Assembly: GCA_036172245.1 (NCBI GenBank)
Contig: JAYWIR010000005.1
Span: 3,658,001-3,722,000, forward strand
From: Raillietiella orientalis
Lineage: Eukaryota
Length of the DNA: 64,000 nt
Reading direction: 5' to 3'
Position numbers and translations under genes: made by a program. The number at the start of each line of letters is the position of its first letter. Positions within the stretch are counted from its first letter, which is position 1. A model generated the notes under the pieces. The model was not told the origin of the DNA and did not search any database. It was given only the letters and a program-made list of their open reading frames with translations. Shown piece after piece: positions 4,604-56,400 of this stretch.

Positions 4604-5199
4604 AATTTCATATTCTGGATTTCCTGTTGCCGAATTTCTGTAGGGGTAGTCATGTAGTTTGAGACTTTCTGTAAAGCTTGCTTTTACCTTAATTTTTCAT
4701 TTAGTAGTGTGCTTGCATCCACAGACTTCAACTGAATTTAAGAAACGTTTTTTGTTTGCAGCAATTAAATCAGTGAACGAGCATGGTCTCTTGAGAAGGG
4801 TACTGATAATGCTGAAACCAAGCAGAAGCTGCTCATTTAACTTTGCGCCTAATGGGTGGTTGGTCAGTGCAACCCCTGTTTGTATTTGTTTGCAGACTCA
4901 ATAAAGATAAAGATAATTCTCAGCATTCATTCCAAAAAGCTGCAAAGATGTAAAAGTTGAATCTGTCTTGCGCATCTTTACTATATAAAATTAATGTTAA
5001 GGTACTTTTGTTCACTTACTTTTATTCCCTCGCAGTTTGTTGGTGTGATAACAACGGCAGTGGTGGCGATATCAGCAATCGGTGGTGCAGTGTTTTTGCG
5101 TTATAACACTGCATCAGCAGTAGCAAATGAGTTGCAATGAATGAATAATTATCTCTTCCAGTTGTTTTGCGTTAATGGTAGACGGAAGTAGTTTCCGAT

Positions 5200-6850
5200 C
5201 ACACGGCAAAATTTGTTGACATGGTGGCAAAATGACTTGGGTCTGATGAATTTCTGAAAATTTCGCACTTCTTGGTGAACGGAAACATTCTGTTCTTTTC
5301 TCGTGATATCCACCGCATCGTTCCTTGGAATCTTCATAGAACGTTTGATAGCTTGTAAAAAAAAAAAAAAAAAAGAAAAAGAAAAAAAATGCGCAGAGGT
5401 CTTCTTGAGAACTGGAGAGCCCACAGAAAGATCTCGTTTTACTCTTATCTTCGCTCCTGTCATTTGTTTATCAAATGCATAGTGTGCTCTCCAAATCTTG
5501 CTGCACTCAGCTTTCTAATTCACCCATTCATAAGCTCAGCACCGCATGCTTGCATAGCAGGAGGTGTCGAGGCCATCGCATTCCGAGTACTCTCTTGCAA
5601 AACAGCTCGCACCCAAATTGCAGTGGCAAGTGAATAGGAACGACTCTTTCGTGTATTGATGGAAGCAATGATTGTTATTATGTGGAAAGATGAAGTGGTT
5701 GATGCTATTTTGAGATGAAAGTGGCACAAAGTATTCGAACTTGGCATGCCCCTTAGTCAGCTCATATATGGAAGAAAGGGTACTCTTCATATCTTTTCCC
5801 TTCTTCACAGTGAACGAACTGCTATGCTGAGATTTTCTCAGGGCACGCATCTACCGTTCTGCGAGCTGTGCAAAATTCAGCATCAGAGCATGAACTGAGC
5901 AATGTTCAAAATACTTTCTTTCGCATCATCATGCAGGAACTCATTCCAGGCCGTTGGTGACATGAACTGTGTAAATCTGAAGTTTGTTAAGAGTGAGCAA
6001 CATGGGCAGTTCGGCTATTATCAGTAGTGACTGTGCGTGTGTCACTCTCGCGCCGGTTCGGTTTTTTGTGTTTTGTGTTCATTTGCTGCATCATGATCTG
6101 GCTTCCCGAAAAAGATTCGCGGTGCCACAAAAGAACACAACAGGCGATGCATGTTCTTGTTTCTAATCAGAACTTTATGAGAAACTGTTAGTCGTTCTTT
6201 GGACGTGACAGAATTGGAACCCCAAGTTGCCTTAGAGAAGACAAACACAACCGCATCAAGATCTCATCGGAAGTTTACTCCGGCTCGTGACGAGAATTGC
6301 ATACGAATATCCTTTGTATTTGCATTACAAGGACGTCATCGTTTTTACAAGAGGTAGAGGTCGAGTGTTTCACGACTTTATGAGAAACAGTTGAGTGCTA
6401 CAACTGCGCGACAGCCGCCCTGATGTGCAGTGTTAGCTCCATAGCACGTGCGGCACTCACCGATGTCACTTGTGGTCCATGATGAGCACGTGTTCAGCGG
6501 TGCTTGTCGCTCCATTGCGTGATGCAGGAGACGTGTGTCTGTATGTTGATGTGGGATCAAGGAAATCTTTCCTAGTTGCCCATTTTCATTGCAAGGAATT
6601 TTTTCCCCATGTCCCCACGCTGGTGGACATTAGGCAAATCTTAAATTTGCTGTAAATTAGGTCTTCCAGTTTTGGAAATTCGAGATCCCAATTATCGGAA
6701 ATTGGTTCTCGGATTGCCCTGTCGATGCTGCGCTGGGATGTGTTCGTAATGAAGCCACGAGTAAATTACTGGCTTCCGGAGTGTGTAGTGGTTGTTTTTG
6801 GTGTGTTTTCCCTGTCATCTTCTCACTTCTCAGAGGAAGCATTCTTCATG
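5200..6850 (-). mobile_element. Heavily decayed L1/Tx1-like ORF2 3' half (relic A)
   Basis: Degenerate motifs in the expected order: TGQSENQFPI (NG..S..F.i.RG), HQHTDT (YADD position), KATWGSNSVTSKERLTVSHKVL (W...LS..GR) and ECSK..EHTMHL (CCHC remnant, ~5480). Many stops and frameshifts; boundaries approximate. Confidence 0.5.
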
Positions 6851-7499
6851 TTACCAGAACGGTGATTCAATTAATTGTTCGTGCGTTTTATATTTGCGTT
6901 TTCCTGTACCGGGGAACTGTGGCGGGTGTACTTTCTACACTGTTTACACAGTTTTTTACTTTGAGCAGGTAAAACCTGGATCTGTTTTTTAAGTCCTGTT
7001 GACTCGTAAACCCAAGCTTGAAAGCTTAGCTAGCCTTAGCTATGTCGGAACAAAAAAATGGTTTCTTCTGAAAGGTTCGTTGAGAATTGGTAATAACCGG
7101 TTTTAGAACTTTGCAAGTCCACCAAAGGGATTCGTGAATCGACCTTTCAAAGGGAACAAATGTTCCCACCAAACCTACAGCTTTCAAGATACCACAACAG
7201 CGTGGGACGAACCTCAGCGTATAGGAAACGCCTCATCTAATCCAGAAAACGACAGTGGTCAAGTTCACTGATTCCACGTGCATGTGGAGCGAGTAAGGCT
7301 CACAGTGGTAGGAAACAGTGGTAGTGTCGAGGTAGAAAAGTCAGTTACGGAAGATAGGCATGCTAAATGTAGTGACGAACTGTCGATGTGCTTGTTGCTG
7401 ATCTCTTCCACAATGTTGCTTCTGGGTAGAAGTCTTGTTCCTCGAACGGAAGGAAGCGTTCATGGTGCAGAAGCGCAGCTGAAGGGCGAGTGAGATGAT

Positions 7500-8105
7500 T
7501 GGGATGCCTTTCACGACGAAGAGTACGCGACGTCATTACTAGCATCGATTGATGTATGGAAAAATCACGTGCTTAATGTCCTATCCATGCGTGCGAAGGG
7601 GAGGGAGTCTGTTGTACTGAATGATGTAGCCTTTTTTATCACTTTTGGGAAGGGTGCAATGTTAGTTTACGAATGGAAATTCTGTTAGTGGAGAGGAATA
7701 TAACTCCTGAGTCTTAATAGGTGCCTTGGAAATGAGCTGACGGCGTGTTGATGTGCAAGCTGCATAGAGGGAGCATTGAAATACAATTCGCAAGCCCACT
7801 CGTACGCTTCAAACCGAAAGAATCGCTGTGACTGCTTCTTCATTCACTTATGGCATGCGAGCTCTGGAATCGAAACCAAAGAGTGCATGCGGCTGCATGG
7901 TCAGGTGTTCCCAGCTGCTTAGTCGATGAAACCTTGCCCTTGAACTGCTCCATGAGCATGCTTGGCCAGAGCGGCCGCGAGTGCTTGTTTGGAGAGGAGG
8001 AGTTGAGGTCGGCAGTCAGGCAGTATTTTGTAGAGGTATTGAGGTTTTGCAGATTGAAGTATCCATGGAAAACGTTCAGAATGGTTTCCCTGTGCGACAG
8101 AAGGT
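7500..8105 (+). mobile_element. Decayed APE-type endonuclease fragment of an L1-like element (relic B)
   Basis: GVLMCKL..YASN...FFIHL followed by WSGVPSCLVD (GDFNC.lD position) and EELRSAVRQYFVEVLRFCRLKYPWKTF. Weak resemblance seen by eye. Confidence 0.35.
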
Positions 8106-10650
8106 GACGTGACCCAAGTCGCTAGCCTCTCGAGCGCACATGCGCAACGCCTCCTGAGGAGCTTTTCAGAGTCGATTATCAAGTTTACCAATCCGTAGCA
8201 GCTCCGTTGTGCCATCGCATTTAGAGACGCGACTGCGAACGAGATGTGAGTTGCAGTTTCTCACGCTCCTTGGAGTGAGGGTGTGCGAGCGAACGACAAT
8301 TTTTTCCCGCGCTGCGCAAAAATTCAACCAGATTTCGAAAGGCGAAGAGGACATTCGAGAAAAATCCTTCTCGAGATGTGTATTTGATTCTCAGCATTTG
8401 AGAACTCTTGGTCCGACCCGTCACAGCAAGATTTCTACACTTGCTCACCGCCCGCAGGCAAGTGGACCGAACGCTGCGAAGACTACAGGGAACGCCCAAG
8501 CTACCGCGCGTCCGCAAACCCCCGCCTTCGAGCAATCGTCACAAGGGCATGGGCAAGGTCGGTGAATTTGGACTGCTCTGCAGGATCTTTTGTGGTCCGT
8601 TCTCAATATCGAAGACCACCTAAGACTTGCCCTCCCTCTTTCTAACGTCAAAGGCTTGCCTCCTCTTCATCTACTGGTGAAATCTTGAGCATGTCATGCA
8701 GGAAAACCTCAGAAGAAGATTCCACGAGGTGACATGTAAAAGACCGTAGGTACAGGATTCTGAGAAAACAGAAATGATGCATTTTCATGACACACTCCAT
8801 TCTCATGCACTGACTCCTCGTGCTGGCCTCCTTGAAATAAATGAGCTCCATAAATGCAAGGATCGTGGATCTAACTGTTCTCCAAAGAAAGCTCTTCGAA
8901 TGTTCGGGAGCGCCCTTTCACCCTTTCTTGGGGCTCAGAAACCTTCGGCTTCATGTGTCGATTCTCTCCTTCCGTGCTTCTGCAAACTTCTGCGGAAGTT
9001 TGCAGAAGTAGAATCTTCCTGAAACTTGGAAGGTGGGGTACAGCGCGGGAAGCGGATCTCGAATTGCGGGTATGGAAGAAAATGCGTGCCTTTCTGTTGG
9101 AAAAAAAAAAAGGAATGCTTCGACTCGCCAGTTCGATCTTTTCCGCAAGGGACTGATTTTCTCCTGGGTCCGAACACCTCTATATTCCGAACCACCCTTC
9201 CCAGCTTCCATCTTCCGTCCTGGATCATGGGCTAGCGGGAGAAGAGCGCAAACGAAGCCAAAGCTCACCATCATAACGCAGTTTACACCTGGAGGTTCTG
9301 CAGCTCCTCTGGAAGTTGCAAACTCTCCCTAAAGGGCCAGCGGTATCTGGAGGTCCGGTTCGTAAGTTCAGTGTTGCTGAAGGAATAAATCTCCGACCAG
9401 TAAGGAGTCATGAGCTCTTCTTAACGTGGCCTACCCTCACCGCCGTATAGTCCCCCGTGAAATGGGAAAAGGTGCACTCCCATGCCCAGCCTCCATAGAA
9501 TTTCCTTTCGCGGCGCCCAGAAATCCCCTCATAGAGCGAATTTGTTCAGTAGCTTCGTCGGGATCTGTAGCTCCCCCTCTCACGTTTCGGAAAATTCCAG
9601 TCATGTTCCTAGCCTTTCCCTGGTTTTGGTACCGGAGAGCCGGGAGCAAAGCCACGGCACTGTTAACCACTCGGTTGAATTCTCCAGGGACACCAAGTCG
9701 TATCTGACGTCGAGGATGCGGTCGTTGTCAAGATCCGTACGCTTCTACACGGACCAGACTGTGCGGTATGGAAACAGTGAGAAGGACAGCAGCGGAAAAG
9801 AGGGATGTATGCCTGGCGATTTATAAAAGAGATGCTGATTTCATGGAAAGCTCTTCCTCTGTACGTTTGAAAGAGGAATGGAAAGCACTTTCGGAAAGTG
9901 TCAGTAAATACGGTACGTCAGGGACACCCACAATACATGTGGAGAGGACCTTTGCACATGTATTGTCCAAAAAAGAACAATCTGGCAAGCGTGAAGAAAA
10001 TGAGAGGAGCCGTGGTGGAAAATGGATGCGTTCTTTCATAGTATTTAATTTTTCTCTAAAAGTGCCGTATAACTTCAATCCATTTTATCATTTATTGCAT
10101 GTTGGTAAATGCGTTTATGCAACACCTGGCATCGGCGCCATGATTGCAGTTGCATCCTCTTAGCAGGAGCATTGTCAAGTTCACACAGTTAGTACATTTG
10201 AAATCCACGAAGAGGGGATTCCTATCCGAGTCCCCGCACTTCTTCCTGCTCCTCACACACAGGCAAAAGCTTATCGATTTCTCTATGCCTGCGCTCCGCA
10301 CACCATGCAGTAGAAATTTTCGCAGTTTCCGCTGAAACGCCGGAACGTCCTCCATCTGATGCACCTTAAGCGGTGACCATCAGGTTGCCAATCCTTCTGT
10401 TGTAAACCGGATAATCTCGTTTTGAGGCCCGCAAGCCCTGCCCTCGGCTTGTGTTGCAACCTCATCGCTTCTCATCACTTCCTTCTGCCTTGGTACAAAT
10501 TTTAGTCCTGGCAACATTTTTGATGTATCTTGAAAACATCTGTTGAACTTGCCAACACACTAAAACACAGGGTAACGGAAGGAGGGCATTTCATCTGCCA
10601 TCACGCAGGTTGGGTCACCGTTATTTTCTCGGATCAGTTGCTGCCGTAGC
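8105..10650 (-). mobile_element. Decayed L1/Tx1-like ORF2, endonuclease to RT (relic C)
   Basis: Colinear remnants: FQDT (LQET), LFVDFKC (GDFNC), ATDPDEA, LMTPYWSEI, PPDTAG (PGPDG), RSNWRV (NWRP), YFKEASTRS (DF.KAFD), AFDVRK, PCDD (YADD position) and SDLG (GGLG). Confidence 0.6.
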
Positions 10651-11449
10651 CATTCTGCCAATTTTCTTTCATCAGTTCTTATAGGGAAACGAGACTTTCC
10701 AGAGATCCCTGATCTTATAGCATGTTGCTTCGTAGAAGGAGCACCTGAACATCAGCAGCTTCCACCCGCGCACCGAGCTGTGGTTTCAAACGAGCAACTT
10801 CCAAGTTTGGGTCCATTTCTTGCAAGTGCTGTGGAATACCTTGTGTACTTAAGAAATTGAATGGCCAATCTTGAAATCAGGAAATTTAATGGGAGAATGA
10901 AGAGAGGTTGCAACAGTTTGAATTTGAATAAAAACATAAGATGAAAGTACATTTATCATTTTGTAAGTCGAACCGAATTGTTCAGTGAGACGATGGCACA
11001 GAAGCCCTGGAAAATTCAATCAAGCAAGAGGCATGCATCAGACGAAACGAGAGCCCACGACAGCGTAGGGCTTTCTTCCTCAAGAGAGGAAGGCACAGAA
11101 GACACTTCTCACTGAACCAGTCCCCCCCTAACATGGAGTCGATCAGAGGTGCAGTTGTATCCCCCCTCCTCCATATCAAGAGAACAAACTGCGCAAAAGA
11201 TTATCTGTCCATCTCGTTCCATGGGATAAATGCTTGCACGCAGCCCAGGAGCAATTGAGGAAGATGCACTAGCTTCCATCCTCCCGAATAGCTCTCCATA
11301 AAAGTTAGAATAGCCTCATTTTCACGGTCATTAATGCTCCAAATAAAAGATATAAAAGCTCTCTTCTGCTCATCCCAGTATTTTCCGACAAAAATAAAAT
11401 AAAATAAAATGGAATGAATAATTACGGCACACTTCCGCTTCATGAAGGA

Positions 11450-13400
11450 AGCAATGAAACTTCAAATGCATCTGATCTCTGGGGCATTTGCCTAACATCG
11501 CGTTGTGCGACAGTGAGCAGATGTCATCCAGGCATTTGCCAAGGGCAAGGCTTTAGCTGGTTCCGGAAATATAAATCCCAATTTCAACGTTTAACGCGTA
11601 ATCTCTTTATTGTTGGTCCGCATGCTGCCCTCTGAACTGGCAAACAAGACCAAAATCCCCCTCGAGTGCGGCGCGCAAGATTTTTGACACGCACGTCTTC
11701 GGTGGGATTCCTCCTTGGTTCCTCAAGCACGCTGGTGCCCCGGGATCCCTTCGTGTTTCGGCGCATCTTCGAGTGCCACTTTATCCACTTCTGGTTCTCG
11801 ACCACCATATCGGTCCACAGTTTGCAGTCCTGTTCTTTTTCCTCGAAGTCAACTTTCCTAGCGAAAGCGAATGGTTTGACCCGAAAGGAACGTTGGGTCT
11901 CCAAGTGAAGCGCTGCGTTGGAACACGGCCCCTTCCTTGCCTGCAACCATTTCAGATACCTTCACACAAGCCGATTGACTGTTCGCCCAATTAAGACAAC
12001 CGGGAACCACACAGATCCAAGAAAAGAAATCTGATTGATTGCTAAGTGTGTCACGTAAGTCTTGAGGGACCTGGGGTTGTACGGACGTGGAAAACGCTTC
12101 TCCAAGGAAAGTTCAAAGGACTTTTCCGGTGTCTGGAATATACTTTGTTAAGGCAGAGCGGTAGGCAAGGATGCTGAGGTTGCTGAGAAAGCAAAAGTGG
12201 AGTTTAAGAAAGGATAAACCGCCTTCGGAAACTTGCATGTTGTCTGTCAACAGGTTGGGACAACTGGAGGCATGGCCACCGAAAACCCACCGCGTCACTT
12301 GCGCTTCAGATCAAAGCAGCTGTGCACGAGAAGTGGCACAAGGTTGGGGGGTGGCTAACACTTCGGAGATCGGTTCGTAGCAACTTCAAGGAATGCTTGC
12401 TACGTGTGCATTCCTTGAAGGTGTTACGAATGGATGAAATGTGTGACGCACACGTACCGTGCGTTTCCTGTAGTTACAACGAATGAATAGCCTGGTAAGG
12501 CGCGTATCAGTTTCTCACTTCCGCAGGAAAGGTTCATTTCGTTTTCATGGAGTGCCCTTGCTTCACAGGCGCCAGCTCATCTCTTGTGACAGCAGACCTC
12601 CAGCATTCACGGCAGCGTATTTGTTTTTTGTTTTTTCAATTTGAGCACGCATTTTCGGTGTTTCCGGCCGGCAGTGGTCGACTCCGTGCAATGAGATTAT
12701 ATTTTGCGGATTTTCCAGCTTATAAATTACAAAAAAACCTGAAGGAAAAAAGAACCTGAATTTCATGAATCGTCACCACGTCAAGAAAGCTTACTACACT
12801 GCGCTTCAAGAGCTTTCCAGCCAACGACGCACTGAATACACACGAATGACCCGCAAACACGCGCTGTTGCAGCAACGGTCACCTGTGTCATGCATCTCCC
12901 CACCTCATCCAGCATGGGATTCTACGAACCCCTGCATGCTTCTACGATGCCACCAAGAGCTTTTCACTCGCGTGTGCACCCTACGAATGCTACCTCGAAC
13001 CGCGCGCTGAACCCGGAAACCCGCGTTTGCCATCGTCCAACCAGTCGAAGGTGCATCTTCAAGGAAAAGCTTCTCAGCATCAGGGTTCTGCAACCTAAAA
13101 ACGCAGACCGAATAACAACCTCATGCAGGTTCGATGCTTGGCACGTTCGCAAATGCATGATGGCGTTTCCGGTGAAGCTTCGGACGCCTTGCTACGCTGG
13201 ACGCAGCGGCAGTCCGGGCTGACCCCGTGAAGACTTGAAACGGAGACCTCGGGCCAAGCTCGGGGAAGTCTGGGAGCGGGGTCTGTGGTCCAACGAGAAA
13301 TGTACCATTTCGATGGAGATGGAACTGCATTTCGTAGCATCTCGGGGTCGACCGCGTCTCTCACGGTGTGCACCTTTGGTGTGTATCCTGAAACGCAAGC
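11450..13400 (-). mobile_element. Decayed L1/Tx1-like ORF2 (relic D)
   Basis: AAVNAGGLLSQEMSWRL (LLN.D.K...K.LA.RL), FKECTRSKH (KAFD.V.H), KTYVTHL (YADD position) and RVKNLARRTRGGF (GGLG block), in the correct order. Confidence 0.5.
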
Positions 13401-13849
13401 ACCTTCGGTTCTAGCCCGTGCTGTGATAAGACATGCCTATCACAGGCGTGTCAGCAGTTTAATTTCACGGTGGTTTTCTGTAAGAATCAAAGCCAAAACA
13501 CTTCGAGCTCGGAATAAAACATGAAATTACCATATCTGAATTTAACCTTGAAGAACGAGCGCTGGATCTCTCGAAGACATCCGAAAGATAACCCGTCGAT
13601 CATCAAAAAACATGCATAAGCAAAAAGACTGCATCCGATCCAGAACATCAACGGTTTGTAACACACAAAAAAGGTCCACCTGCTTCTCAGACGACCAGTA
13701 CTTTTAACATTGCCATTTCAAAGGCAATCGGCGCGTAGAAAAAAACTCATATAAAACGAAAACAAAATGGTTGTTCTGCATGCAACTACACGACAATCTG
13801 AAAGAACAAGTTGGCTGCCTTCTTGACTGTATCCCTTTCGATTCTTACT

Positions 13850-14560
13850 CTTAACTTTCAGACTTCCTCTTATCATGGACCCACGCGGAAGTGAAAACTT
13901 GTATTTGTGTATCTTCAGTCAAGGACACTTTCAGCACCATTAAATGAAGAAATGCTAACAGCTATTGGCCTTAAAAGGGCAGCGAAATCTTGCCGATTCT
14001 ACGACTTGGTCATCAAACGACTCTTGGATCGGAGGGCCACGGGCATGCAGGCAGTACCAAGAACAGGCAGGTCTTCAATTCGAGGATGTGAAGCAACTCG
14101 TATCCGAGAGAGCTGCATCTTCAGCACGGTCCCTTCACGTCCTCGTCTGTGCCCTGCAAGCAGAAGGTCCCCTCCGCACTCTCACAAAGTGCAAACAGGA
14201 GCAGGGTCAAGTTGCCCTACAGGTAGATGCGCCTCCTCGTCTGAGGAAAAGTCAGCAGTGTTCCCACTAACGTGTGAGCCGTTTCCGCTGACGAAATGCC
14301 CGTTGATGAGTTTTCAAGCCTTGTTAGGGGAATTTTTGTGCAGAAAGCACCGTCCGGCGTCCACAACAGCGTGGATTTGGAGGAAAATTCAGCTTTTAAT
14401 TGACTGGGCACGATCACATGTTTTGCAAACTGAAATAAAAGAACGGAAGAATCCCAACACCAGGGTCCGAGAAATCTACCAGCAAGTCCCACCACATTCG
14501 GCAGTGGTTTCCGATTCAACAGGCAAGCAAGCAAAACTGCATCTTCGAACTTGAGAAGAC
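13850..14560 (+). mobile_element. Decayed L1-like RT fragment (relic E)
   Basis: SAPLNEEMLTAI (P.T.EE...AI) followed by KGQRNLADSTTW (KKGDL....NW) and VKQLVSE (li..eQ). Confidence 0.4.
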
Positions 14561-15181
14561 TTAGGAGGGGATGGGGAGGAAGGGGTAGGGAGCTGAAACG
14601 ATACTGATAAACCTGCCTGAATCCCAAATCTGTTTGAAATGTCAATGAACGAACGTGACTCCATATGAAAAACCAAGAACTATTAAACAGTAAATTTATA
14701 TTCAGGGTGCTGGCTTAAGATTATCCACCTCCCCAACGACTGAACACTCCAAAATTGCAGCGAATTAATTCGGATGAATAATTTTTATACGGCCATTTCG
14801 CTTCTGGATCTCACGCTCCAAGTACCCTGCCGTGCCGACACGCTAGCGCCATCCACAAGGTGTAATTTAAGCATAGCCAACGCCACACAACAATTGCAGG
14901 GCTTCCGCCCTCAGCAACTCCAAACGTGGAAATATTCCGACGGAAAGTCGTAAAGTATTGAGATCTTGTTTAAATTTAAAAAAAGTAGGAAATCGGCTTT
15001 ACGAAAAAAATAAAATAAAATACTCTGCTTTAAAAGGTTTTTTTAAAAACCATTATTCTTCACAGATATAAAAAAGCAACAACAACAACATTGTTAAAAA
15101 CGAATAAAACCCAAATACACACTTAAGCTATCAGCAAAACAGAAAAGTGAGTCACACTTAAATAATCCGTACTGTCCAAGT

Positions 15182-15231
15182 AACAAGACAAACAAACTAG
15201 CTAGTAAACAAGACAAATAAATTAGCTAGCA
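15182..15231. repeat. Two-copy 25-bp direct repeat
   Basis: aacaagacaaacaaactagctagta followed by aacaagacaaataaattagctagca (3 mismatches). Confidence 0.7.
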
Positions 15232-46125: not shown

Positions 46126-46350
46126 ATTTTCACCCGGTTTTCGCCGGGTGAAAATATTATTATAAATGAATAATATTTATATTAATAATATTTATATTTA
46201 ATAATATTTATATTTTCATATAATAATATTATTATAAATATTATTATATGAAAATATTAATATTATTATAAATATTATTATATGAAAATATTGATATTAT
46301 TATAAATATTATTATATGAAAATATTGATATTATTATAAATATTATTTTA
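46126..46350. repeat. 12-bp perfect hairpin followed by an almost pure A/T island of 34-bp tandem and inverted units
   Basis: attttcacccgg-ttttcg-ccgggtgaaaat at 46126-46155. Units atattattataaatattattatatgaaaatatt(a/g) start at 46226, 46260, 46294 and 46328 (partial). 46211-46230 is the reverse complement of part of the unit. Confidence 0.9.
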
Positions 46351-46369
46351 AAAACAAACTTTAAAAACG

Positions 46370-49300
46370 TGCTGTGGCTGGACCAGTGCCCCAGCCACGC
46401 ACGAAGAAACAGAGCCTGCCGGGTCACCGGTTCGCAGACCGGTATGGTCCACCACGGCAGCAGGGGGAAGGGGGATAAACAAAAAAACTAAAAAAGAAAA
46501 GAAAACGTGGGAAGGTACGGGAAGGGATCACTGTTGCTGCTGGGGCCGTTGCATCCTTTGCAGGATGCCAGCAAGCTCTCTCTGCATTCGTGGATCCAGA
46601 TGGAGCCATCGCGATGCCCTCTTCAAAAATTCGTCGGCACCCTTATCGCGAGGTCCTCTCTCAGCCTTGCTCCAAGCAGCGACGATCTTGCGAAGGCAAC
46701 ACATGGCTGCTAACGAGGCAGCAGGCCGAAGGGCGTCAGCAACGGAAAGGGCTTTCAAAGCGTCCCTAGGGCTGCCGCAGGGGATTACGATGGCTGCGGC
46801 AAAGAGTAGCCAAAGGTTCCGAAGGGCAACACAATCCACAAGGAGGTGAGGGAGAGACTCCCGTTCCTCATACCTAACACAGTTGGGGTTCACCGCTCCC
46901 CAAGTCCAATGGTGTCGGCGGGCGATGCAGGGGAGTCCCCAGTGCAGCAACAGGAGCGCCGACTCCTGCCATTTTAAGGGGAGGGTGGAGGTGTTCATTA
47001 GCACTGGGGGCCACTTCAGATGTTCAATCGGAACCTCGAGCAGCGCACCCCAGCGCAGAAGTCCATGGGGTGGTGTACTCGGGGTCTGAGCGTCTGTTAG
47101 TTGGCCGTCTTACACTCTCCTATTTTCTTCTCCCTTCCGGAGATTTCGACTACAACCTCCCACTTCGCTGCAACATCGCTGTCCAGATCTGAAGGAGGCC
47201 AGCGCAGCAGGAGGGGGGTTCTTCCTGACCACGCTTTCTTCTTAGGATCCTCCAGGATCTCCTGGAGCGTGCAACTTCTGTAGCGCCCGAACAGGAACCG
47301 TCGTTCCTGTAGGGCGCGTTGCATGCCGCTCTGTGTCCACGTGCGAACGGTTTCCTGCAACCAGGCACTACCGTTCGTGAGGCGACAGGTGATCCATCCT
47401 TGGTTTTTCCGAACCAAGGCTGCCACCCTCCGTAGCTGGAGCCCACATCGGTTGATGCGGCGGCGATAGAATGCAAGAAAGGACACGAGTCCCGTCTTGC
47501 CTGTGGCTTGCTGGAGAAGGAGACGTGCAGGGACGCACCAACAGGTGCACCACAACTCTGGAACAAGTGCCAGCATTCGGAACTGGAGCTGAAGCTCCAG
47601 CCGCTCCAATGTCAGGATGCCTAGACCGCCATCCCGACGCAGAGCGCACAAGTCCCTCAAGCGGACTTGGGCCCTCCCGTTGCCCCAAAGGGCGATACGG
47701 AGGAGGTCCTTTGTCCGCTTTTTAATTCTCTCTGTGGGGGGGCAAACAAAAAGCAGGGGGCGGAGGAGAGGAGGCGCGAACGTGTTCCAAACCGCGGCCC
47801 GTTCAGGAAGGAAAAACCTGCCACCTCGGAACGGGCCGATCGCCGTCTCTACTTTTTGGAGGCAGCCGGACCACGCTTCCGCAGGGGAGTAGTCCCCCAA
47901 CGGCACACCAAGGTACTTGAAGTACCTCACCGTGGGGATCCCCAAAGGGACCCAGTCCTGCTGCCCTGCCCACGCCGCACCAACTGGTATCACGGACGAC
48001 TTCGCCCTGTTCACTGTTATGCCTGTTCCCCGACGGAGCAGGTCGAAGAACTCGACCGCCGAAGCCTGGGTGGACACAGGGAGCAGCAGCAGAAGGTCGT
48101 CCGCGTACGCTGAAACCGCAGGCGTACCGGCACAATCGTGCGGCAGGCGCGCCAGAGTTTCCCTGTACGCTCTCAGTACCAACTCGAAGTAGGTACTGAA
48201 GAGCAAGGGGCTCAGGCTGTCTCCTTGCCGTATCCCACGCCGCACCGGCACGCCGTGCACGGTCTGCCCGCTGAAAGAAACGTTGATGAGAGCGTCGCGC
48301 CATCTGGAGCTCAGACAGGCCAATAATGAGGCCGGGAAGCCCAAGCGTTCCAGAAGCTCCAGCAGGAGTTTATGGTCGATGCTGTCGAATGCTTTGTGCA
48401 AGCCGACTGCGACCTCTAGGGCTCCCTCCTTCACCCGACCATCCGTCCCCTTGCCGACGAACTCACAGGAATTCAGGCTGCGCACCAAGCCCCTTTCATG
48501 CTGGAGCTCCAGCCAGGTGGAAGCGTGGAACAGGTTCGCCTCCATGCTTCGCCCGGGAACAGCATATGTCTGCTCCGGGCTGATGAAGGCGTTAGCAACC
48601 CGTCCCAGACGCTCTGCCCACAACTTTGCTAGCAACTTGGCATCCGCATTCACTATTGTGATGGGACGCCAGTTGTTCATGCTCCTCAGATCTCCTCCCT
48701 TAGGGAGGAGCCGCACCTTTGCCGAGCGAAACGAGGCGGGAACGTCACCTGTCTCGCGGATCAGCAAGGTGAGCTGATGTACCAGGGAGTAAGCTCTGCC
48801 GCGAAAGTTTGATAAAACTCCGCGGGCAGGCCGTCCTCCCCTGGAGCCTTGCGCCTCTTGAGCTTTCCGATGGCCGAGAGGATCTCGTCCATCGTGAAAG
48901 GCTCGTCGAGGGTCTTTCTCTGCTCCTCCCCGATCGCTGGAGTGCCTTCCGGAAGCAGGAGTCGTGAGACATCTTGCTCGGGAGGCGTTCTTGCGTGCAG
49001 AGAGGTATAAAAACATTTCAGAAGACCGCGAATCTGGGTGGGTGCCGAGTGCTCCCGGCCCTGATCGGCCAGCAAGCTGGCCGATCCGGACTGCCAGGCT
49101 TGCCTCTTGGCTCTCGCTCTGTATTCTGCTAGCCTGAGGATGTCGGGGGTCCTTGCGTAACGTCGGGTCTGCAGGTAGCAACTTTCGTTACGGACCCCGT
49201 CCCCAAATCCCGCAGGTAGGCGGTGCATAGGGAACTGGTCGCAGAACTCCTGGACCGACCACTTGAAGCGGTCCCAGTCCTGGAGCGTCTTCATCCCCAA

Positions 49301-50200
49301 GGTAATGGAAAGCCGTTGCCGCCGTCTCTAGGGAAGAAAAGGACCGAGGAAGAGAGATAAAGGTCGAAAGTCGGCCGGAACAGTCGAAACCTCTCGACTG
49401 CTCCGGCCGAGTTTCCGAAGAGGCGGGAGGATCCTTCCCCGTTTCCCAAAGGCGTTCTTCCCGTAGGAACGGCACGGCGGAGCAAGGCGACCTTTCCCTC
49501 TCTTCCTCGGTCCTTTTCTTCCCTAGAGACGGCGGCGATGGCTTTCCATTATCTTGGGGATGCGGGCGCATGCGGACGAGGAGACGTGGCAGGCAGGCAG
49601 TGGTTTCATCGGAAAGTCTCCACACTCTGGATGGGGTTGTCGTCTTGGCAGGTGGAAGGAATCAGTGAAGGCTCGCAAAGGAGGAAGGGAGGAGGCAGTG
49701 TTCGTCTTTCCGGACATTCTGGGATCTCTCCGGTGCAGCATCTTACCATCTTCAGCAGGGGGGGCATGACGTAAGCGAAGAGGAGCGTCGTCGTCGTCCA
49801 CGACAACGGAGGCTGCCTCCCTCTCGGTGCCGCGCGCGCGGCCGCGGCAAGCGGAAACGATGGCGCTCTTGAGGCAGAGAAAATGTCGCCAGGTGGACCA
49901 TGCCCCAGGCTCAGAGGACAGCACGCTCACTAAGGGCAGTACCGGCAGCCGTTCGTAGCCATCGCCTTTCCCGTCAGCGAGCCACAGTCTTCTGCACCGC
50001 CTCTGAGCAACGTTTGCAGAGGCCTCGTTAAAGACCACCGTCGCTTACACGACTTCCTCAGCTCGCGGTCGTTCAGATGCTTCTGTGTCTCTCCCTGCGA
50101 AGGTGAAGATCCCGGGCGCTCTGCGGTGAAATCCAAGTAATGTCATCGTATTTTTTCGGTAGCAAGTGGAACTGAAGAAGCAACTCTGGGAAGAAGGGAG
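46370..50200 (-). mobile_element. L1/Tx1-like non-LTR retrotransposon ORF2 with 3' UTR, inactivated (copy I)
   Basis: WDRFK, LDEPFTMDEILSAIGKLKRRKAPGEDGLPAEFY (frameshift ~48785), LLPKGGDLRSMNNWRPITIVNADAK, Q.YAVPGRS, KAFDSIDH, RGIRQGDSLSPLLF, YADD, VNRAKS, KYLG, GGLG, then a stop at 47097 and a CCHC remnant CVRYEERESLPHLLVDC with final stop at 46528. The first catalytic Asp position reads G (VGLHKAFD). The endonuclease part above 49560 is far more decayed. Confidence 0.95.
49292..49562. mobile_element. 271-bp foldback/MITE-like segment with 65-bp terminal inverted repeats, inside copy I
   Basis: 49292-49356 and the reverse complement of 49498-49562 match at 62/65 positions (catccccaag.taatggaaagcc.t.gccgccgtctctagggaagaaaaggaccgaggaagagag), with a 141-bp spacer. 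Confidence 0.75.
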
Positions 50201-50949
50201 GGAAGGACGAGTGACCTAGCCGCTCTCTCTGGAAGGATAGAGGGAATGCGATGGACAAGACTGCCGAAAGAACAGGGTTTAGCCTTTCTTTTTCCTCCTT
50301 CCCTCCCGCCACCCCTGTGCACGCAATAGTCCTTCCAGTTCATCCGAAAGGCGGTTTAAAAGGAACAAAGAAAGAGGGAAGAGATAAAGCATCAGTGGCT
50401 GCAAAGAGATGCAGCCGCCCTGATGCATCCACCCATTCGGCCTCCTAAATCCCCGATGCACGAGGGAAGCCCAGCGACGAATTCCTCTGGCGATCGGATC
50501 GGAAGAAGCGGCAGCGGCCGGGTCTCCTGACTTCCAGCGTTGAGCCATTGGCTCCTGGAGGGTCCCTTGGTCCGTCACGGCGTTTTCGCGGCTGCTGACC
50601 GCAAGTGGGCAGTTCCGGCGCACCAACGGCGGACATGCGAGAGCTCATGCTTTCCCTTCCGATGCTCGGAGATCTCCTCCTCCTCCTGCTTCCCAAAACC
50701 TCTGACGTCTCTCCTTTCCTCGCGCTCTTCTCTACTCTCCTATTGGCCACGCCCTACAACTGCTATGAAGCCCAGCTTCTCGATCTCAGATGCAGAAAAA
50801 GGTTACCTGCGTAAAGATCCCTTTCCTCCGCGGGCCAGGGTTTCGGACACCTAAGAGCGAACTCCTGTTCCCTCATAAGCAGAAAGGGAACACGGAGGTG
50901 ATCTTGTTGGCTAACACCCGGTAGCGTCGGGGCGTTCATTATGAAAGAA

Positions 50950-53400
50950 ACATACAGGTGTAGGGTTATCGGGTCCTAAAACATCTGAAAATGTTCGGAA
51001 CCTGCCGAGTAACCGGTACGCAGACCGGCGAGCTTCACCCCGGCAGCGGAGGAGGAAAGGGCAAACAAAATTAAAAACAATAAAATATATACAAAAAAAT
51101 TGGGAGGGTTGGGGAATGGATCACTGATCGCAGGAGGACGTCTTCTGCATCCTTTCCAGGAGGCCGGCAAGTTCCATCCGAGTATGTCGCAGGTGGGACC
51201 ATTTTGCTGCCTTCCACAGGAAGCGTAGGGAGAAGCTAATGGCAACCCTATTGTGACGTTCTCCTCTCACGTAGCTCCAGACCGGCACAATCCCGCTTAG
51301 GCAGCAAAGAGCTGCTGGGGATGCGGTAGGCGACTGGGCATCACGCGCGAAAAGGAGCTTCATCACGTCCCAGGGATTGTCCATCGGTGCAAGGACAGTT
51401 AAGTAACGCAGAAACAGGGGCCGGAGGGAAACAGTCTACAAGCAGGTGCAGGAGGGATTCTCGTTCTCCACACCTGCAGCAGTTTGGGTCCACAGCCCCC
51501 TATTTTCAGTGAGATCGGCGGGCGTTGCTGGAGAGGCTCCAGTGCAACACCAGAAATGCCGATTCCTACCGCTTCAGGGGGAGAGTCCGGTTGTTCTTCG
51601 GCTCTGGAGGCCACTCGAGGTCTCCCTGTGGGATTCCCGGCAGCTCACCTCAGAGCAATAGTCCTTTCGGTGGGATACTTGGGATCGCAGCGTCCGTGAG
51701 CAGGTCCGTGGTCCAACCGCCTAGTTCCCTCGTCTTCTGACTGATTTCGCAACTGACCTCCTATTTGGCAGACTGGTTACTGTCAAGGTGCTCAGGAGGG
51801 GATCTATTTGGCTGAGGGAGGGTACTGCCGCAGGTAGAGAGGGCCTGGAGAAGAGTTCCGCCCATGCACACGTGGTGGGCTGCACGATGACGTCCTGCAG
51901 CGAGCGGTTATTGTAGGAGTGCATCAGCCACTGCCGCATATGTGGGCTTGTTTCATTGTTCTTGGTCCAGACATCACCGTTTGCGGAACGGCAGAAGATC
52001 CAGTTGTTGGTCCTAATCAGCTTGACCACTCTACAAAGCTTCAGTCCGCAGCTGGACACGTTGATCCTGCGTTGCTGCTCTAGGAACGAAATCCCGCGTT
52101 GCCGGTGGCTCGCTTGACCAAGTATCGTGCGGGCTCGCACCAGTTCGTGCTCCGAAGCTTCGCCACTAGGACAAGTATGTTCCACTGAAGCTGCCGCTCC
52201 AGGCGCTCCAGGTCATCAGGAGGTCGAGACCGCCGTCGCGACGCGGAGCGATAAAGTCCTTCAGGCGGACTTGGTGCCTCCCTGTGGCCCTGATAGCAAT
52301 TCTGAGGAAGTCCTTCGTCCACATTTTAATGCTATTCGGTGGAAACACACAAAAATCAAAGGACGGAGAAGCAAGTTTCTCTTGCCGTGCCAGCAAGAGA
52401 AACTTGCCATCCTCTGCTTTCTGGGACTGGAACGAGCCGATCGCCAACTCTGCTTTCTGGAGGCAGCTAGACCCGCCTCCGACGGGGAATATGATCTTGT
52501 TGATGAGCACCTTTGACAGCGTAGGGAGTGATCATTCGATGCAGCATCCACTCGTTCTGATTTGAGTATGTGTTCATCTTGATCTCAAGGATCCACAATC
52601 CGAGACGGAGATTGCGCGGTGTCAGTAGTAACGCTGCGATGCGCACGTCGGCAGCATGTTTGTGAACCATTTCTCAAGTAATACTCATAAAGAGAAAGAT
52701 ACGAGTAATAATGCCTCCAGCCATGGTTCTTTCAAGTGGCGAAACCATACAAACAGAGGACCTAGCGGAAGAAGAATTATTCTCTCAAACAAGGTAATCA
52801 AAGGAGGCAATGCAGCCGTACTCCCAAGACTTGGAAACGAAAAGAATCCAAGCGGTCAGTAGTTACGATGGGATCCCGTTTTATTCAGGAAGGAGTTGTC
52901 CTGAGAACTCCCGAGCACTGAAAATGGGGAAATGGTGTACAGCATGGCAAGCGACCGATTCGTGTTGCCAAGCACACCGACTTGAAAGGTAGCAGTTTGA
53001 ATTTTCATTCATCCCTCGACTCCTCGAAAAAGAAAAGAAAGACCCGCCAAAAGGGGTGAGCAGAAGAGAATTCTGTGCAGCGAAATTGAGTGAGTTCGCT
53101 TTCAACTGATATTCAAGCGAATGACCTCAATTCCTCATGGATTTGCATCTCTTGATAGAAATCCCGAGTCAGGAGAAATGGAAAGCAGTGAAGACGGAAA
53201 ACCTTGGTAAGAGAAGATACAAGGATGAAAGAACTAAGAAGAAGTGTAGGAGGCCTTCATTTACCTTAGAAGACTGAAAGAATTAATGATTGACATTACT
53301 AGAAAATAAACCATTATCCAATGTCATCCGTAAAAGAATTCTCTACTTCGTCTATTCAAGATGGTCTCATAACAAAATGATTCCAACTGCATCATGAGAT
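50950..53400 (-). mobile_element. Second, more decayed member of the same L1/Tx1-like family (copy J)
   Basis: Direct homology to copy I: SCLQKAELAIGSF vs GCLQKVETAIGPF; TKDFLRIAIRATGRHQVRLKDFIAPRRDGGL vs TKDLLRIALWGNGRAQVRLRDLCALRRDGGL; ELAGLLERMQ vs ELAGILQRMQ. Equivalent stop (51121-51123) and a similar 3' UTR. KSMRN and EVENSFTDDI remnants extend to ~53360. Confidence 0.9.
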
Positions 53401-56400
53401 ATTCATTTCTATCCGTGAATCAGTTTTCAAACCAGATTGGCGAGGGACTTTGTTCCTAACAACCGAAACTTCCATTTCGAATCTCAGAAACGGAAGTGCA
53501 CCAAATTGAGAAACGAAACAAACAAAAGTGAAGATTGTACGTTCTGAAAGTACCTTTTCTTCGGGGTCCCAAAGCTCTCAGCCGTTAGAACTGGTAGGAA
53601 GATTTAAGGAGAGATTGAAAGATTCCAGCTGGAGATGATAGTGACAATAACATTAAGCACGTGACTACTAAGCAGCATGACCAACGCATTTCTTCTGATC
53701 TCGCCATGAAATGGATGATAATGTAGATAGCGACAGTTTCTACATAAGCAATCTATAGTGCAATGGCCTTGCAGGCATGAGCACGGGTAAAAAACGATTC
53801 TGGTACTTTTCTAATGGCTTAAGAAGAAATATCAATAATCAGTTCTGCAAATAAAGTTCACGAAGACACTGTTTTTAGAGAATTATTGATCCATATAACT
53901 AGCTATTTTTCTTTAAATGGCATTTCCTGGGATTTCAGTGCTTACCTTCGATTACTATAATGCACACATACATGTATACAAAATCATGTTACTTATCTAA
54001 TTAAAGTTCTTCTGTGGGGCATACCGAAACGATGAACATGAACATTTTGTTTTATGGGACAAAACGTCTTGCTCATTCAAGGACATCTTGTGTAGTGTAA
54101 ATATATGTTTCTGAAATTTGTTTAAAAAATCTCTCAATTTTAGCTGTAAACGAAATATTTTGCATATTAATAATAACATTACATGTTTTTCATCTAGGAA
54201 ATGTGATCTGGTGAAGAGTTTCTACCATTATTTGGAACCAGCTTTCCATTAAACCCAGTATGAGAGAGGACAATCAAGCATACTCAAGCACAAAAAAGAA
54301 AAAATCTTTGAAAGAAAATTCCGATGTTAGCAAAATCTTTAGTTACAGAATAACTCAATGTTACTTTATATGGAGCATGATATTTAAGCACATACTTTTT
54401 ACCTCCATGATGATCACTCTAAATCGATGTTATCATTGGTTTTATTTTTATTCAGTCTGATATCTTTTTCTTTCATAGAAAAAGTCGGGAACTCCAACTT
54501 CAGTTTTGCTGTCTTCTGTTTAGAGTATTGGACGACTTTTAATATTTTATTTCTTAAAGTATTTGCGTGGATTGTTCTTTTAGTTTTTTTTTTCTTTTTG
54601 GACGAAAACTAGAACGATTGATGTGCCGTTTTTTTTTCCTACCCTAGATTCCTCTAGCAATAAGTCAAATAGAATAGATAAGTAATAGTAGGATACATTC
54701 ATGAACACAACCGAGTCAGCCATCTTCCTACACCTTAATCCACTGATTAAAGTTGTTTGGAAACAAGGATCGGATTAGGTATGGGTAGGGGTCTTCAAGT
54801 AGGGGTCTTCGATATGGGTCTTCAAGCTCTTTTTAGTACTGAGGCATATTAGGATGAAACACCAGCCAAACTGATGTGATCTGCAGTGATGAAGCGGTGA
54901 AGGTCTTCTAGCACACAGACTATTCTGAACAGTCCACTGACTTTTGAAGATCATATCTGGCTATTAATAATTAGTATTCGAGGAAACTATAGTAAATGCA
55001 CGAAATGATTACTGCATTTCGTTTCATGAAACACTAATCGCATATTGCTTTCTAGCAAACGCTCATTCCAAATGTCTTATCTAAATAATGGACAATTTTC
55101 CATGCTTCAGTTGTTTTGAAGCATGGAAATGGCATCTTCCATGTTCTACAAGAAACAGCTTGCTTTTAACGAGATCTGTTTGCAGTTGAATGAATGAAAT
55201 TGAATGAAATTACTCAGTAGTATGCTGTTGCTATAGCATTGAATGAACTCTAGTGTTTTCCAGTGAATTGAATAATGACACAGAGTGCCAAATTCTTTAT
55301 CATCACTTTCCAGACCGCACATAACATGGTTAGGGCTGCTCGGAATTTTTTTGCTTAGAAAATGCTTCTGATAATAGCACCTTTCATGGATATTGAATGT
55401 GTGAACTGCATCGGATATTTGGCCGCTCTTTTACGAAAGTGATTTTGTGCAGCGACCGAGAAGTACTTTAGACGGTTTCCTTCACAGAGGGAGGGGAGGG
55501 GGGGAGGGGGAGAAAATGGAAATTTGACAGTAAAATCGATCAACTCCACAAACCGAATGTACACGCAGCTTAATTTACCATTGCTCTCTTCACCCCCAGC
55601 CAACGGAAGGAATCCAAGTTTAGATGTTCCCCGAAGGCTTGTCTTGGCTATGCGTTCCGTCACGAAGCGGTGCGCATTTTCGGTTGTTTATGATTGGCAA
55701 GCCTTTTGTACATAGCACAAAGTGCTCAAAGACTATAATACAAGTTTTATGCATTATTTCATATGGAGAATGAATTAATGCATGCATAAGAATTATTATA
55801 TCTTTGTACATACATTTTTATATCCTTGTCAAATGACTTATTCATATTCTTAAATTTGTAATTATTATCTGTAATACCTTTTGTTTTATACTGAATGATT
55901 TTATATTCCCGAGTTGTAGGAGATGACCTTAAAAAATGACCTTAAAAAAGTACTATGCAAGGAGTGAACCAAGACACGCATGATATTGAGCCCGCGATTA
56001 AACGAAATTAATACACAGCCATTTCTCGTTTGTATGTTAAAGCTTATTTGTTATAGATATGTGCTATGTGTTTGCTTCAATGGCTATTCATACTGTAAAA
56101 TTGGTTTCCTAGGATTTTGTTTTTGAGCATTCAGGTGAATTACCGTTGATATGTACATGCAATTAACACATTCATCTAAACGTTTCCTGCAAGAATGATC
56201 GTTAAAGTAACCTACTTAGAAAACCAAAGTGAAATGTTCTCGCAGAAACGTTACGAAATACATACACACGCACAAGCGAATCCATCAAAACTAAAAATTG
56301 TAAATACTGCATGAAAGCCATGAGACTACAACTTTCCTTTTATGTTTCATTCAAGTACTGCTGCTTTCTTCACTCCTGCTTCTTATGCACACATTCTATG

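Follow-up and report, generated by a model that had tools for sequence, protein, structure and literature searches.

In the honeybee, low-CpG housekeeping genes are set against high-CpG developmental and tissue-specific genes, GC content covaries between coding, intronic and intergenic DNA, mutation is AT-biased and gene bodies are methylated, according to two studies (Zeng and Yi, 2010, PMC2975444; Wallberg et al., 2015, PMC4406589). In the later study low-CpG housekeeping genes recombine 2.3-3.4-fold less and B averages 5.71 (Wallberg et al., 2015), while in the earlier one recombination was not found to differ between genes of low and high CpG (Zeng and Yi, 2010). The runaway GC regions of gerbils, which show extreme local GC over host genes, with GC-biased gene conversion (gBGC) given as the cause, are clustered over megabases in a mammal with global methylation and were recognized through substitution rates against relatives (PMC7403616). 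In the fig wasp Pegoscapus two gene compartments differ in GC3, attributed to the presence or absence of gBGC, the low-GC3 compartment residing in huge TE-rich pericentric blocks (PMC12405890). Hypomethylated valleys and CpG-island domains are broad, CpG-retaining and cover developmental-type genes with their upstream DNA (PMC10936051); recombination takes place at CpG islands in species without PRDM9 (PMC12047536), and purine/pyrimidine tracts go with recombination hot spots in yeast and human (PMC1543642).

The pattern described here for a stretch of 64 kb from Raillietiella orientalis (the window) and for further loci of the genome is an extreme form of the developmental versus housekeeping GC split of the honeybee. 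It shares with the latter the two gene classes, the covariation of coding, intronic and intergenic GC, the AT-biased mutation and, judged from CpG observed/expected ratios (o/e), gene-body methylation. The GC-rich class, however, reaches 0.64-0.71 GC compared with 0.50-0.55 in the top honeybee bin (0.34 for the whole genome), CpG o/e lies near 0.9 instead of 1.67, the edges are about 1 kb wide and a strong GGA-tract signature is present. The extreme GC over host genes recalls the gerbils, although the domains extend over 10-30 kb, are sorted by gene class and were studied in the sequence of one genome only. Like methylation valleys, a broad CpG-retaining domain covers a developmental-type gene plus upstream DNA and is shared by homeobox loci; the background is mosaic instead of globally methylated and, as in the comparison with the honeybee, the domain is recognized by its sequence signature alone. 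As opposed to Pegoscapus, the AT-rich compartment consists of housekeeping genes in compact islands, and TE nests owe their high GC to inheritance. A literature search, with subscription papers mostly outside its coverage, retrieved no report of such domains in non-insect arthropods.

Base composition and genes of the window

Segmentation resolves the window into steps of 0.35, 0.47, 0.64, 0.58 and 0.35 GC (Table 1). The contrast seen in the earlier note is real, with a standard deviation of GC in 1-kb bins of 0.126 versus at most 0.020 among 200 shuffles, and its hand counts of GC per 60 nucleotides (46, 32 and 15) were exact on recount, but the gradual dome that it described is a terraced structure, in which the main rise, from about 0.3 to about 0.6 GC, falls at 15.0-16.2 kb and is completed within about 1 kb. 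The plateau, about 30 kb in all, comprises the fasciclin gene together with about 19.5 kb of DNA upstream of it, and 13-18% of its bases lie in purine or pyrimidine tracts of at least 10 nt. CpG is retained in this core, which had been called CpG-rich, but an o/e of 0.89 makes it undepleted rather than enriched. On the shelf, where neither a gene nor a significant repeat was detected, CpG is equally undepleted yet GC is only 0.47, so that absence of methylation is insufficient for high GC. Vertebrate isochores are long homogeneous segments, classically above 300 kb; the plateau measures 30 kb and the GC class switches every 10-40 kb across 264 kb, so the domain is not an isochore in the vertebrate sense.

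Table 1. Segments, genes and repeats of the window
Feature	Position	Strand	Properties
Left AT-rich compartment	1-5475		GC 0.351, CpG o/e 0.65 (0.42 over 1.0-4.9 kb)
GATAD1-like gene, two 3' coding exons	4118-4325, 4371-4603	+	45-nt intron between the exons
Intermediate shelf	5476-15825		GC 0.469, CpG o/e 0.87; purine/pyrimidine tracts sparse (3%)
GC-rich plateau	15826-46100		GC 0.641, CpG o/e 0.89, TpA o/e 0.35
Host U3 snoRNA 5' fragment	31301-31347	-	About 47 nt between 9-nt direct repeats
Fasciclin (FAS1-domain) gene	35370-45244	+	11 GT-AG exons, 668 aa, no internal stops
AT-minisatellite segment	46101-46900		GC 0.43
AT-rich minisatellite	46149-46347		Lies where the LINE copy has its 3' end
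L1/Tx1-like LINE copy	46343-49301	-	5'-truncated, frameshifted; GC 0.59 (family median 0.595)
Right shoulder	46901-52650		GC 0.577
Older broken LINE 3' fragment	50915-52491	-	GC 0.55; best identity to compared copies 67%
Right AT-rich compartment	52651-64000		GC 0.353, CpG o/e 0.66
Lunapark main coding exon	57268-58377	+	PF10058; GC3 0.28, CpG o/e 0.39

The fasciclin protein, hydrophobic at both termini, matched PF02469 in five of the nine exons scanned; a close orthologue was not found, the best homologue being about 25% identical over its length. The predominance of G/C-ending codons and the GC-rich introns noted previously were borne out (GC3 0.88; four-fold GC 0.89, n=360; ten introns with GC 0.66 and CpG o/e 0.84), and C and G are used nearly equally at four-fold sites (166 versus 153), as expected of a strong-over-weak bias. 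Equally accurate was the description of the flanking genes as AT-rich and CpG-poor, with GC3 of 0.33 and CpG o/e of 0.18 for the exons at the left, which had no Pfam match and which we take to be GATAD1-like in keeping with the name given by the earlier reader, and with comparable values for lunapark (Table 1). The single measured GATAD1-like intron has a GC of 0.36; an intron of 45 nt is common to the fasciclin and GATAD1-like genes. The best matches of lunapark are about 44% identical and those of DDX41 81-85%, flat over insects, an ostracod and molluscs. Amino-acid bias was uninformative, with fasciclin homologues only about 25% identical and lunapark and DDX41 moved in opposite directions.

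Recurrence across the genome

The GC split is repeated over a distance of 264 kb and, on other contigs, at 55 gene loci. With overlapping loci dropped (two homeobox, three DEAD-box), 28 homeobox loci have a median GC of 0.60 and CpG o/e of 0.89 versus 0.36 and 0.51 for 27 DEAD-box loci (p about 1e-9 for GC and 1e-8 for CpG o/e). GC3 is 0.83 for homeobox genes, a set with one locus (L087) read in the wrong frame, versus 0.32 for DEAD-box helicases (26 loci), and correlates with flank GC in both classes (rho 0.76 for homeobox, n=28; 0.63 for DEAD-box). Homeobox genes with GC-rich surroundings include arthropod-type Hox genes and are found on many contigs. Because silent sites, introns and intergenic DNA are shifted together, homeobox GC3 tracks the flanks and the pattern recurs on other contigs, the regional bias on host DNA that the earlier note had proposed is supported.

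The plateau also shares its oligonucleotide signature with 14 GC-rich homeobox loci, with o/e of 8.3 versus 8.0 for GGAGGA, 3.7 versus 3.1 for GAGAG and 0.35 versus 0.39 for TpA. LINEs of equal GC are without this GGA-tract signature, and the plateau exceeds LINEs in GC as well as, by 3-4-fold, in tract content. Neighbour-dependent point substitution was considered as a source of the tracts and rejected, as four-fold sites show no effect (p=0.58).

The genome contains a Spo11-type domain and a gene presumed from its motifs to be DNMT1-like, the body of which has itself a CpG o/e of 0.37-0.39. Together with the CpG-depleted housekeeping gene bodies, the latter gene agrees with a mosaic of gene-body methylation. 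A search for the DNMT3 ADD domain gave no match, which does not establish its absence.

LINE copies and mutational equilibrium

The earlier note had described dead L1-like relics from the core, from the left slope and from outside the domain, with a GC content that follows position. Significant LINE copies were found in the window only at the two locations of Table 1, by blast searches (tblastn, blastn) with two LINE families, an iterated HMM and frameshift-tolerant profile alignment against reversed and shuffled controls; the right AT-rich flank was covered by the profile searches and, on two frames, by Pfam. Pfam reverse transcriptase and endonuclease models matched none of 140 of the 202 frames (at least 40 aa) at 4.7-16.5 kb and none of 145 of the 297 such frames at 16.4-35.3 kb; on these 285 frames 17 Pfam matches were obtained, all below curated cut-offs and at about chance level (E 0.0075-0.049). 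A genome self-search with 4.8-16.5 and 16.5-35.3 kb returned simple repeats and a run of poly-A, along with the U3 fragment and one other locus (C44) that was matched twice over a short length, and an Rfam scan at gathering thresholds of the window and three loci gave no match. The U3 fragment is one member of a dispersed family which, with nine changes in 21 copies, is uninformative as a neutral marker. Weak leads are five core profile scores of 25.5-29.4 (best reversed control 23.9), two of them overlapping fasciclin exons, and a match at 12244-12438 (E=0.011, reversed control empty) with a frameshift-aware score of 24.7 versus 26.0 for the best control.

Recognizable LINE copies stay at about 0.5-0.6 GC in flanks of 0.32-0.62, and a LINE nest 57-100 kb upstream has a GC of 0.51-0.62. 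For such recognizable copies relic GC is explained by family GC, even in AT-rich flanks, the outcome that the earlier note itself had named as refuting its view. The right shoulder is filled mostly by LINEs, and with a native GC of 0.54-0.60 in both families much of its GC is inherited from them. The minisatellite at 46149-46347 is probably the tail of the adjacent LINE copy. In this copy, 18 private W>S changes stand against 43 S>W changes, 20 of the latter at CpG, which is lost 2.6-fold faster than other G/C sites (p=0.002); the region is therefore not uniformly unmethylated, which hints at some methylation over the copy.

Private changes in young LINE copies (67 alignments), even across codon positions and with a CpG rate ratio of 1.0, yield an equilibrium GC of about 0.30, an estimate obtained mostly outside plateau domains. 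By set, with rows excluded whose nearest relative is less than 94% identical (5 of 41 and 12 of 43), it is 0.299 (36 rows) and 0.325 (31 rows). New changes are AT-biased, and the plateau at 0.64 lies above mutational equilibrium; the AT-rich flanks probably sit near it. Restoration of missing CpGs would close no more than 0.7-1.8 GC points of the gap, which is about 29. The plateau requires a GC-favouring force, equivalent to a B of about 1.4-1.5 in non-coding DNA (GC 0.63-0.66) and 2.9 at four-fold sites (0.89). Methylation-driven decay, to which the AT-rich flanks had been ascribed, is a minor contributor, and the changes in young copies point to about 0.30 even without CpG excess.

Where LINE copies are flanked by GC-rich DNA (4 rows, 46 W>S, 84 S>W) the equilibrium is 0.45 (0.35-0.53), below local GC, and for those in AT-rich flanks (10 rows, 84 W>S, 171 S>W) 0.38 (0.32-0.44); in these few and young rows, with an estimate confounded by the distance to the nearest relative (rho -0.30), no difference was detected (Fisher p=0.65). 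The comparison covers copies with flanks unique relative to a partial repeat library; L196 was excluded, as were L217, L219 and L234, whose unique flank is short or missing. The GC-rich flanks, with 6.5-9.7% tracts, stay below the plateau. Copies in unique flanks lost G/C preferentially at CpG (129 of 355 S>W changes, p=1e-7), compared with a ratio of 0.95 in the other 56 rows.

Origin of the GC-rich domains

In developmental-gene domains, in the window the fasciclin gene with its upstream DNA, something has favoured G/C. We consider gBGC in unmethylated developmental-gene domains the best reading, and a somewhat probable one. Compact housekeeping-gene islands would rest near mutational equilibrium (0.33-0.36), with gene-body methylation by DNMT1 further stripping their CpGs. 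The force, which may be partly historical, is read as gBGC because recombination would be focused on regulatory domains free of methylation and reduced where gene bodies are methylated. GGA-type tracts would then have expanded by slippage in non-coding DNA; gBGC alone does not predict their enrichment.

A rival reading is selection for a chromatin signal, whereby a CpG-island-like or Polycomb-type domain of GC-, CpG-, GGA- and GAGA-rich sequence is kept as a mark of developmental loci. In flies, Polycomb is recruited by GAGA motifs. The domain coincides with one gene and its upstream DNA and has an edge about 1 kb wide, its k-mer signature is that of GC-rich homeobox loci and not of LINEs of equal GC, and the tracts have no mirror at four-fold sites (p=0.58). 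We nevertheless judge this explanation rather unlikely, as four-fold GC (0.89) exceeds that of introns (0.66), CpG o/e is just 0.89, neutral slippage can yield tracts and some 30,000 selected sites per locus would amount to a heavy load. Still less probable is a mutation or repair spectrum that is less AT-biased in GC-rich domains, with no fixation bias involved: spectra do differ by region, as seen in the CpG loss of copies in unique flanks versus other copies, but this difference, more CpG loss, is in the wrong direction, and even with GC-rich DNA around them copies are drifting toward AT (0.45).

The idea that old GC-rich LINEs, heaped up and incompletely decayed, make up the plateau draws on the native GC of the families, the upstream nest, the LINE-filled shoulder and the few weak scores. 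It is very improbable, with no significant relic at 16-46 kb, a GC content surpassing that of LINEs, tracts at 3-4 times their level and a host gene with a four-fold GC of 0.89 left unexplained; DNA too old to be recognized, moreover, should by now have drifted toward 0.30. Translational selection for G/C-ending codons, which could account for fasciclin four-fold GC above intron GC, is more doubtful yet, as a housekeeping helicase class has a GC3 of only 0.32 (26 loci), introns and intergenic DNA are shifted as well and GC3 tracks flank GC in both gene sets. Sharp edges and the lack of a close fasciclin orthologue (best about 25%) might suggest horizontal acquisition or a chimeric assembly; the earlier note had already thought horizontal acquisition less likely, and the presence of the same signature on many contigs around homeobox genes, those of arthropod-type Hox included, a fragment of the host U3 lying with its target-site duplication inside the plateau, a host-family LINE at the plateau edge and the 45-nt introns in both fasciclin and GATAD1-like genes leave these two origins with hardly any probability.

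Implications

Such GC islands may be mistaken for contamination or horizontal transfer. If gBGC is causal, the connection of methylation with recombination and GC content known from the honeybee would exist here with a larger amplitude, on a finer scale and divided by gene class, and tests of methylation-suppressed recombination in invertebrates and of gBGC load at developmental loci would become feasible. If chromatin selection is causal, invertebrates would have in these domains an equivalent of CpG-island domains. As a tentative extension, which we think doubtful, developmental genes may lie in sequence-encoded, sharply bounded domains resembling vertebrate CpG-island and methylation-valley domains, in which recombination directed to unmethylated Polycomb-type chromatin would have driven GC to 65-70% and given rise to GGA tracts, and these would mark or stabilize the domain in their turn, with borders readable from composition alone.

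Composition of the window

The GC contrast described in the earlier note is real, and its three hand counts of GC were exact on recount, but likelihood segmentation of window GC resolves terraces (see table) and not a gradual dome. The large steps lie at 15.8 kb, where the transition is about 1 kb wide, and at 52.65 kb. With a standard deviation of 1-kb GC of 0.126 versus at most 0.020 in 200 shuffles, the heterogeneity is far above chance. The plateau, described there as CpG-rich, is undepleted in CpG but not enriched. The plateau approximately comprises the fasciclin gene and 19.5 kb upstream of it, and stops 0.9 kb past the stop codon.

The fasciclin gene possesses 11 exons encoding 668 aa, no internal stops and GT-AG borders in 10 of 10 introns; Pfam Fasciclin was matched in five of the nine scanned exons, and exon 7 resembles periostin, TGFBI and Fasciclin I chains. 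Its GC3 is 0.88, four-fold GC 0.89 and intron GC 0.66, while GC3 amounts to 0.28 in lunapark, identified by Pfam, and to 0.33 in the 3' exons of the gene which, following the earlier note, we take to be GATAD1-like.

Features of the window and of neighbouring regions on the same contig (G000:C5, contig coordinates); L-numbers denote loci of the assembly outside the window
Feature	Position	GC	CpG o/e	Remarks
Left AT-rich terrace	1-5475	0.351	0.65-0.66 (both flanks)	
GATAD1-like 3' exons (+)	4118-4603		0.18	
Shelf	5476-15825	0.469	0.87	
Homeodomain match (-)	8874-9179			weak, E=0.0075, under cut-off, crosses poly-A/T run; probably chance
tblastn LINE match	12244-12438			E=0.011, reversed control without any; lead only
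Plateau's left edge	15590-16200			by eye, CG-rich promoter-like words, two minus-strand donor-like sites; leftward transcript into shelf possible
Plateau	15826-46100	0.641	0.89	
U3 fragment	31301-31347			47 nt, bounded by 9-nt direct repeats
Degenerate internal repeat	32600-33000			32687-32799 vs 32870-32983, 75%; two short matches on another contig (C44)
Fasciclin gene (+)	35370-45244			
AT dip between plateau and right shoulder				800 nt
L1/Tx1-like copy	46343-49301			significant
Right shoulder	46901-52650	0.577		
L1/Tx1-like copy	50915-52491			significant
Right AT-rich terrace	52651-64000	0.353	0.65-0.66 (both flanks)	
Lunapark main exon (+)	57268-58377		0.39	
LINE nest (L001-L005)	G000:C5:3558001-3601000	0.51-0.62		several subfamilies, both orientations, few purine tracts
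Repeat copies (L005-L009)	G000:C5:3602000-3641000			five or six, 0.85-1.3 kb, 89-95% identity; also 5.5-kb duplication at 99.2%
Inverted duplication (L015-L018)	G000:C5:3768474-3794983	0.61		9.3 kb, 99.5% identity, 46-73 kb past window

Tract signature and gene classes

The share of sequence lying in purine or pyrimidine runs of at least 10 nt (tracts) is 13% in the upstream plateau and 18% across the gene span; it is 3% in the shelf and 2-5% in the flanks, and shuffled sequence has about 1%. Elsewhere, the share is 10.6% at homeobox loci, 3.4% at DEAD-box loci and 4% in LINEs. In GGAGGA o/e (8.3 and 8.0), GpA (1.42 and 1.34) and TpA (0.35 and 0.39) the plateau is close to 14 homeobox loci of GC at least 0.6 and unlike LINEs of equal GC (3.9, 1.12 and 0.52). 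Judged by this sequence signature, GC-rich DNA here is of two kinds, inherited LINE and host-type domain, with the plateau assigned to the latter. As a neighbour effect is absent at four-fold sites (p=0.58), the tracts are put down to changes in length or to selection acting on the non-coding DNA.

The assembly comprises 210 Mb in 491 contigs. Along 264 kb of the same contig, GC of 2-kb windows spans 0.29-0.69 and correlates with CpG o/e (rho 0.58). On other contigs, 28 non-overlapping homeodomain loci, from the best 30 of 90 matches, have a median GC of 0.60 (0.38-0.71) and CpG o/e of 0.89, versus 0.36 (0.29-0.49) and 0.51 for 27 DEAD-box loci from the best 30 of 43 (p=9e-10 for GC, p=1e-8 for CpG o/e). 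GC3 is 0.83 versus 0.32, and tracks flank GC inside each class (rho 0.76 and 0.63). The genome also contains a Spo11-type domain and two genes presumed, by their motifs, to be DNMT1-like and DNMT2-like; a search for the ADD domain of DNMT3 gave no match, which does not speak for its absence.

LINE copies and inherited GC

The key evidence of the earlier note, relics in core, slope and outside with a GC content following position, fails: only the two tabulated copies are significant, and family GC accounts for every testable copy. Native median GC is 0.595 in family 1 of the LINEs, with 6939 candidates genome-wide, and 0.54 in family 2. Recognisable pieces retain 0.52-0.62 within flanks of 0.36-0.40, and young copies about 0.5-0.56 within 0.32-0.40, so that family GC explains the relic GC of the tested copies. 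Inherited LINE sequence makes up most of the right shoulder.

An iterated HMM search over the window gave zero further LINE relics, and Pfam reverse transcriptase and endonuclease were absent from the frames scanned (140 of 202 at 4.7-16.5 kb, 145 of 297 at 16.4-35.3 kb). Frameshift-tolerant alignment reached 25.7 for family 2, with control maxima of 23.9-26.0; for family 1, five core scores (25.5-29.4) exceeded the reversed control (23.9), two of them falling on fasciclin exons and thus marking the noise level of the method. Very old relics may lie below detection level. Near-intact ORF2 frames (L055-L061, L186-L215) have a GC3 of about 0.65-0.72 while dead copies drift toward 0.30, which suggests that active source elements evolve under a GC-favouring regime.

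A 47-nt U3 snoRNA 5' fragment lies within the plateau, and its best genomic matches include the 5' ends of both top Rfam U3 hits. The U3 match was confirmed in 40 of 40 scored among 99 candidates, at least 38 copies beyond the two U3 genes; such dispersed 5' fragments of about 47-60 nt (L153-L181), with flank GC of 0.31-0.62 and several visible target-site duplications, were probably made by LINE machinery. The two best U3 genes (L182-L183) directly adjoin LINE sequence.

Direction of substitution

In LINE copies with unique flanks CpG is lost faster (129 of 355 G/C to A/T, or S>W, changes; p=1e-7), including the window copy 46343-49301 (20 of 43, p=0.002). This copy and 19 other unique-flank rows (L225-L235 and others) lose CpG at 1.6-2.5 times the rate of other G/C sites; in the remaining copies, many of them nested, the ratio is 0.95 and the excess absent. 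From this unexpected pattern, solitary LINEs seem to carry methylation even next to the plateau, and nested copies may go without it.

Strictly private differences of each LINE copy versus its nearest relatives gave 224 W>S and 822 S>W changes in family 1 (36 of 41 rows; equilibrium GC 0.299) and 143 and 367 in family 2 (31 of 43 rows; 0.325). They are even over codon positions (432/403/465 and 253/236/211), with a ratio of CpG to other G/C change rates of 1.0, in a sample with many copies from nests and with insertion and assembly errors counted in. A young-copy equilibrium of about 0.30 would place AT-rich islands close to mutational equilibrium; restored missing CpGs would raise their GC by just 0.7-1.8 points. 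Under GC* = 1/(1+lambda e^-B), as given in PMC4406589, the strength B of gene conversion biased towards GC (gBGC) needed from a base of 0.30 is 1.4-1.5 for the plateau, 2.9 for four-fold sites, 0.7 for the shelf and 0.2 for the flanks.

Among 20 LINE copies with retrieved flanks, equilibrium GC is 0.45 in GC-rich (0.35-0.53; 4 rows) versus 0.38 in AT-rich flanks (0.32-0.44; 10 rows; p=0.65), and 0.35 in intermediate flanks (6 rows), the other 56 rows giving 0.29; with a nearest relative of at least 94%, it is 0.48 (GC-rich, 2 rows) versus 0.43 (AT-rich, 5 rows). Present-day positional bias is unsupported by these 20 copies, a weak refutation because they are young, maybe unfixed or hemizygous, and outside any plateau of equal tract content.

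Possible mechanisms and known systems

What the data show is the landscape, the split between gene classes and the distance from equilibrium. The best reading, to which we give somewhat better than even chances, is that mutation would be AT-biased throughout the genome, with methylated housekeeping islands near mutational equilibrium, while gBGC, present or past, would raise the GC of unmethylated developmental domains and slippage would create the purine/pyrimidine tracts. Recombination and a fixation bias as the agents are inferred from analogy with known systems.

Selection on a chromatin signal is the strongest competitor, at about one chance in five; regional mutation spectra are rather less probable. 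An old LINE pile is improbable given the plateau's host-type signature, and translational selection, with GC high at four-fold sites and also in introns, is still more so. Least credible of all is foreign DNA or a chimera, against which the U3 fragment, the signature shared with Hox loci and the 45-nt intron common to the fasciclin and GATAD1-like genes speak, in agreement with the earlier doubt about horizontal acquisition.

The plateau falls short of the length usually asked of a classical isochore. It resembles the runaway GC of gerbils (PMC7403616) and hypomethylated developmental domains (PMC10936051, PMC12047536), and the plateau/flank split resembles fig-wasp GC3 compartments (PMC12405890). 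Other literature considered includes PMC1543642, which links purine/pyrimidine tracts with hot spots in yeast and human, and PMC10978632. The honeybee GC landscape (PMC4406589; PMC2975444) works alike, and the present case is a candidate member of that type; in PMC2975444, honeybee CpG classes did not differ in recombination. No description of such GC domains in a non-insect arthropod was found in the literature searched, of which coverage was partial. In R. orientalis the domain pattern is real and genome-wide and, compared with the honeybee, more extreme and sharper, with a distinct tract signature.
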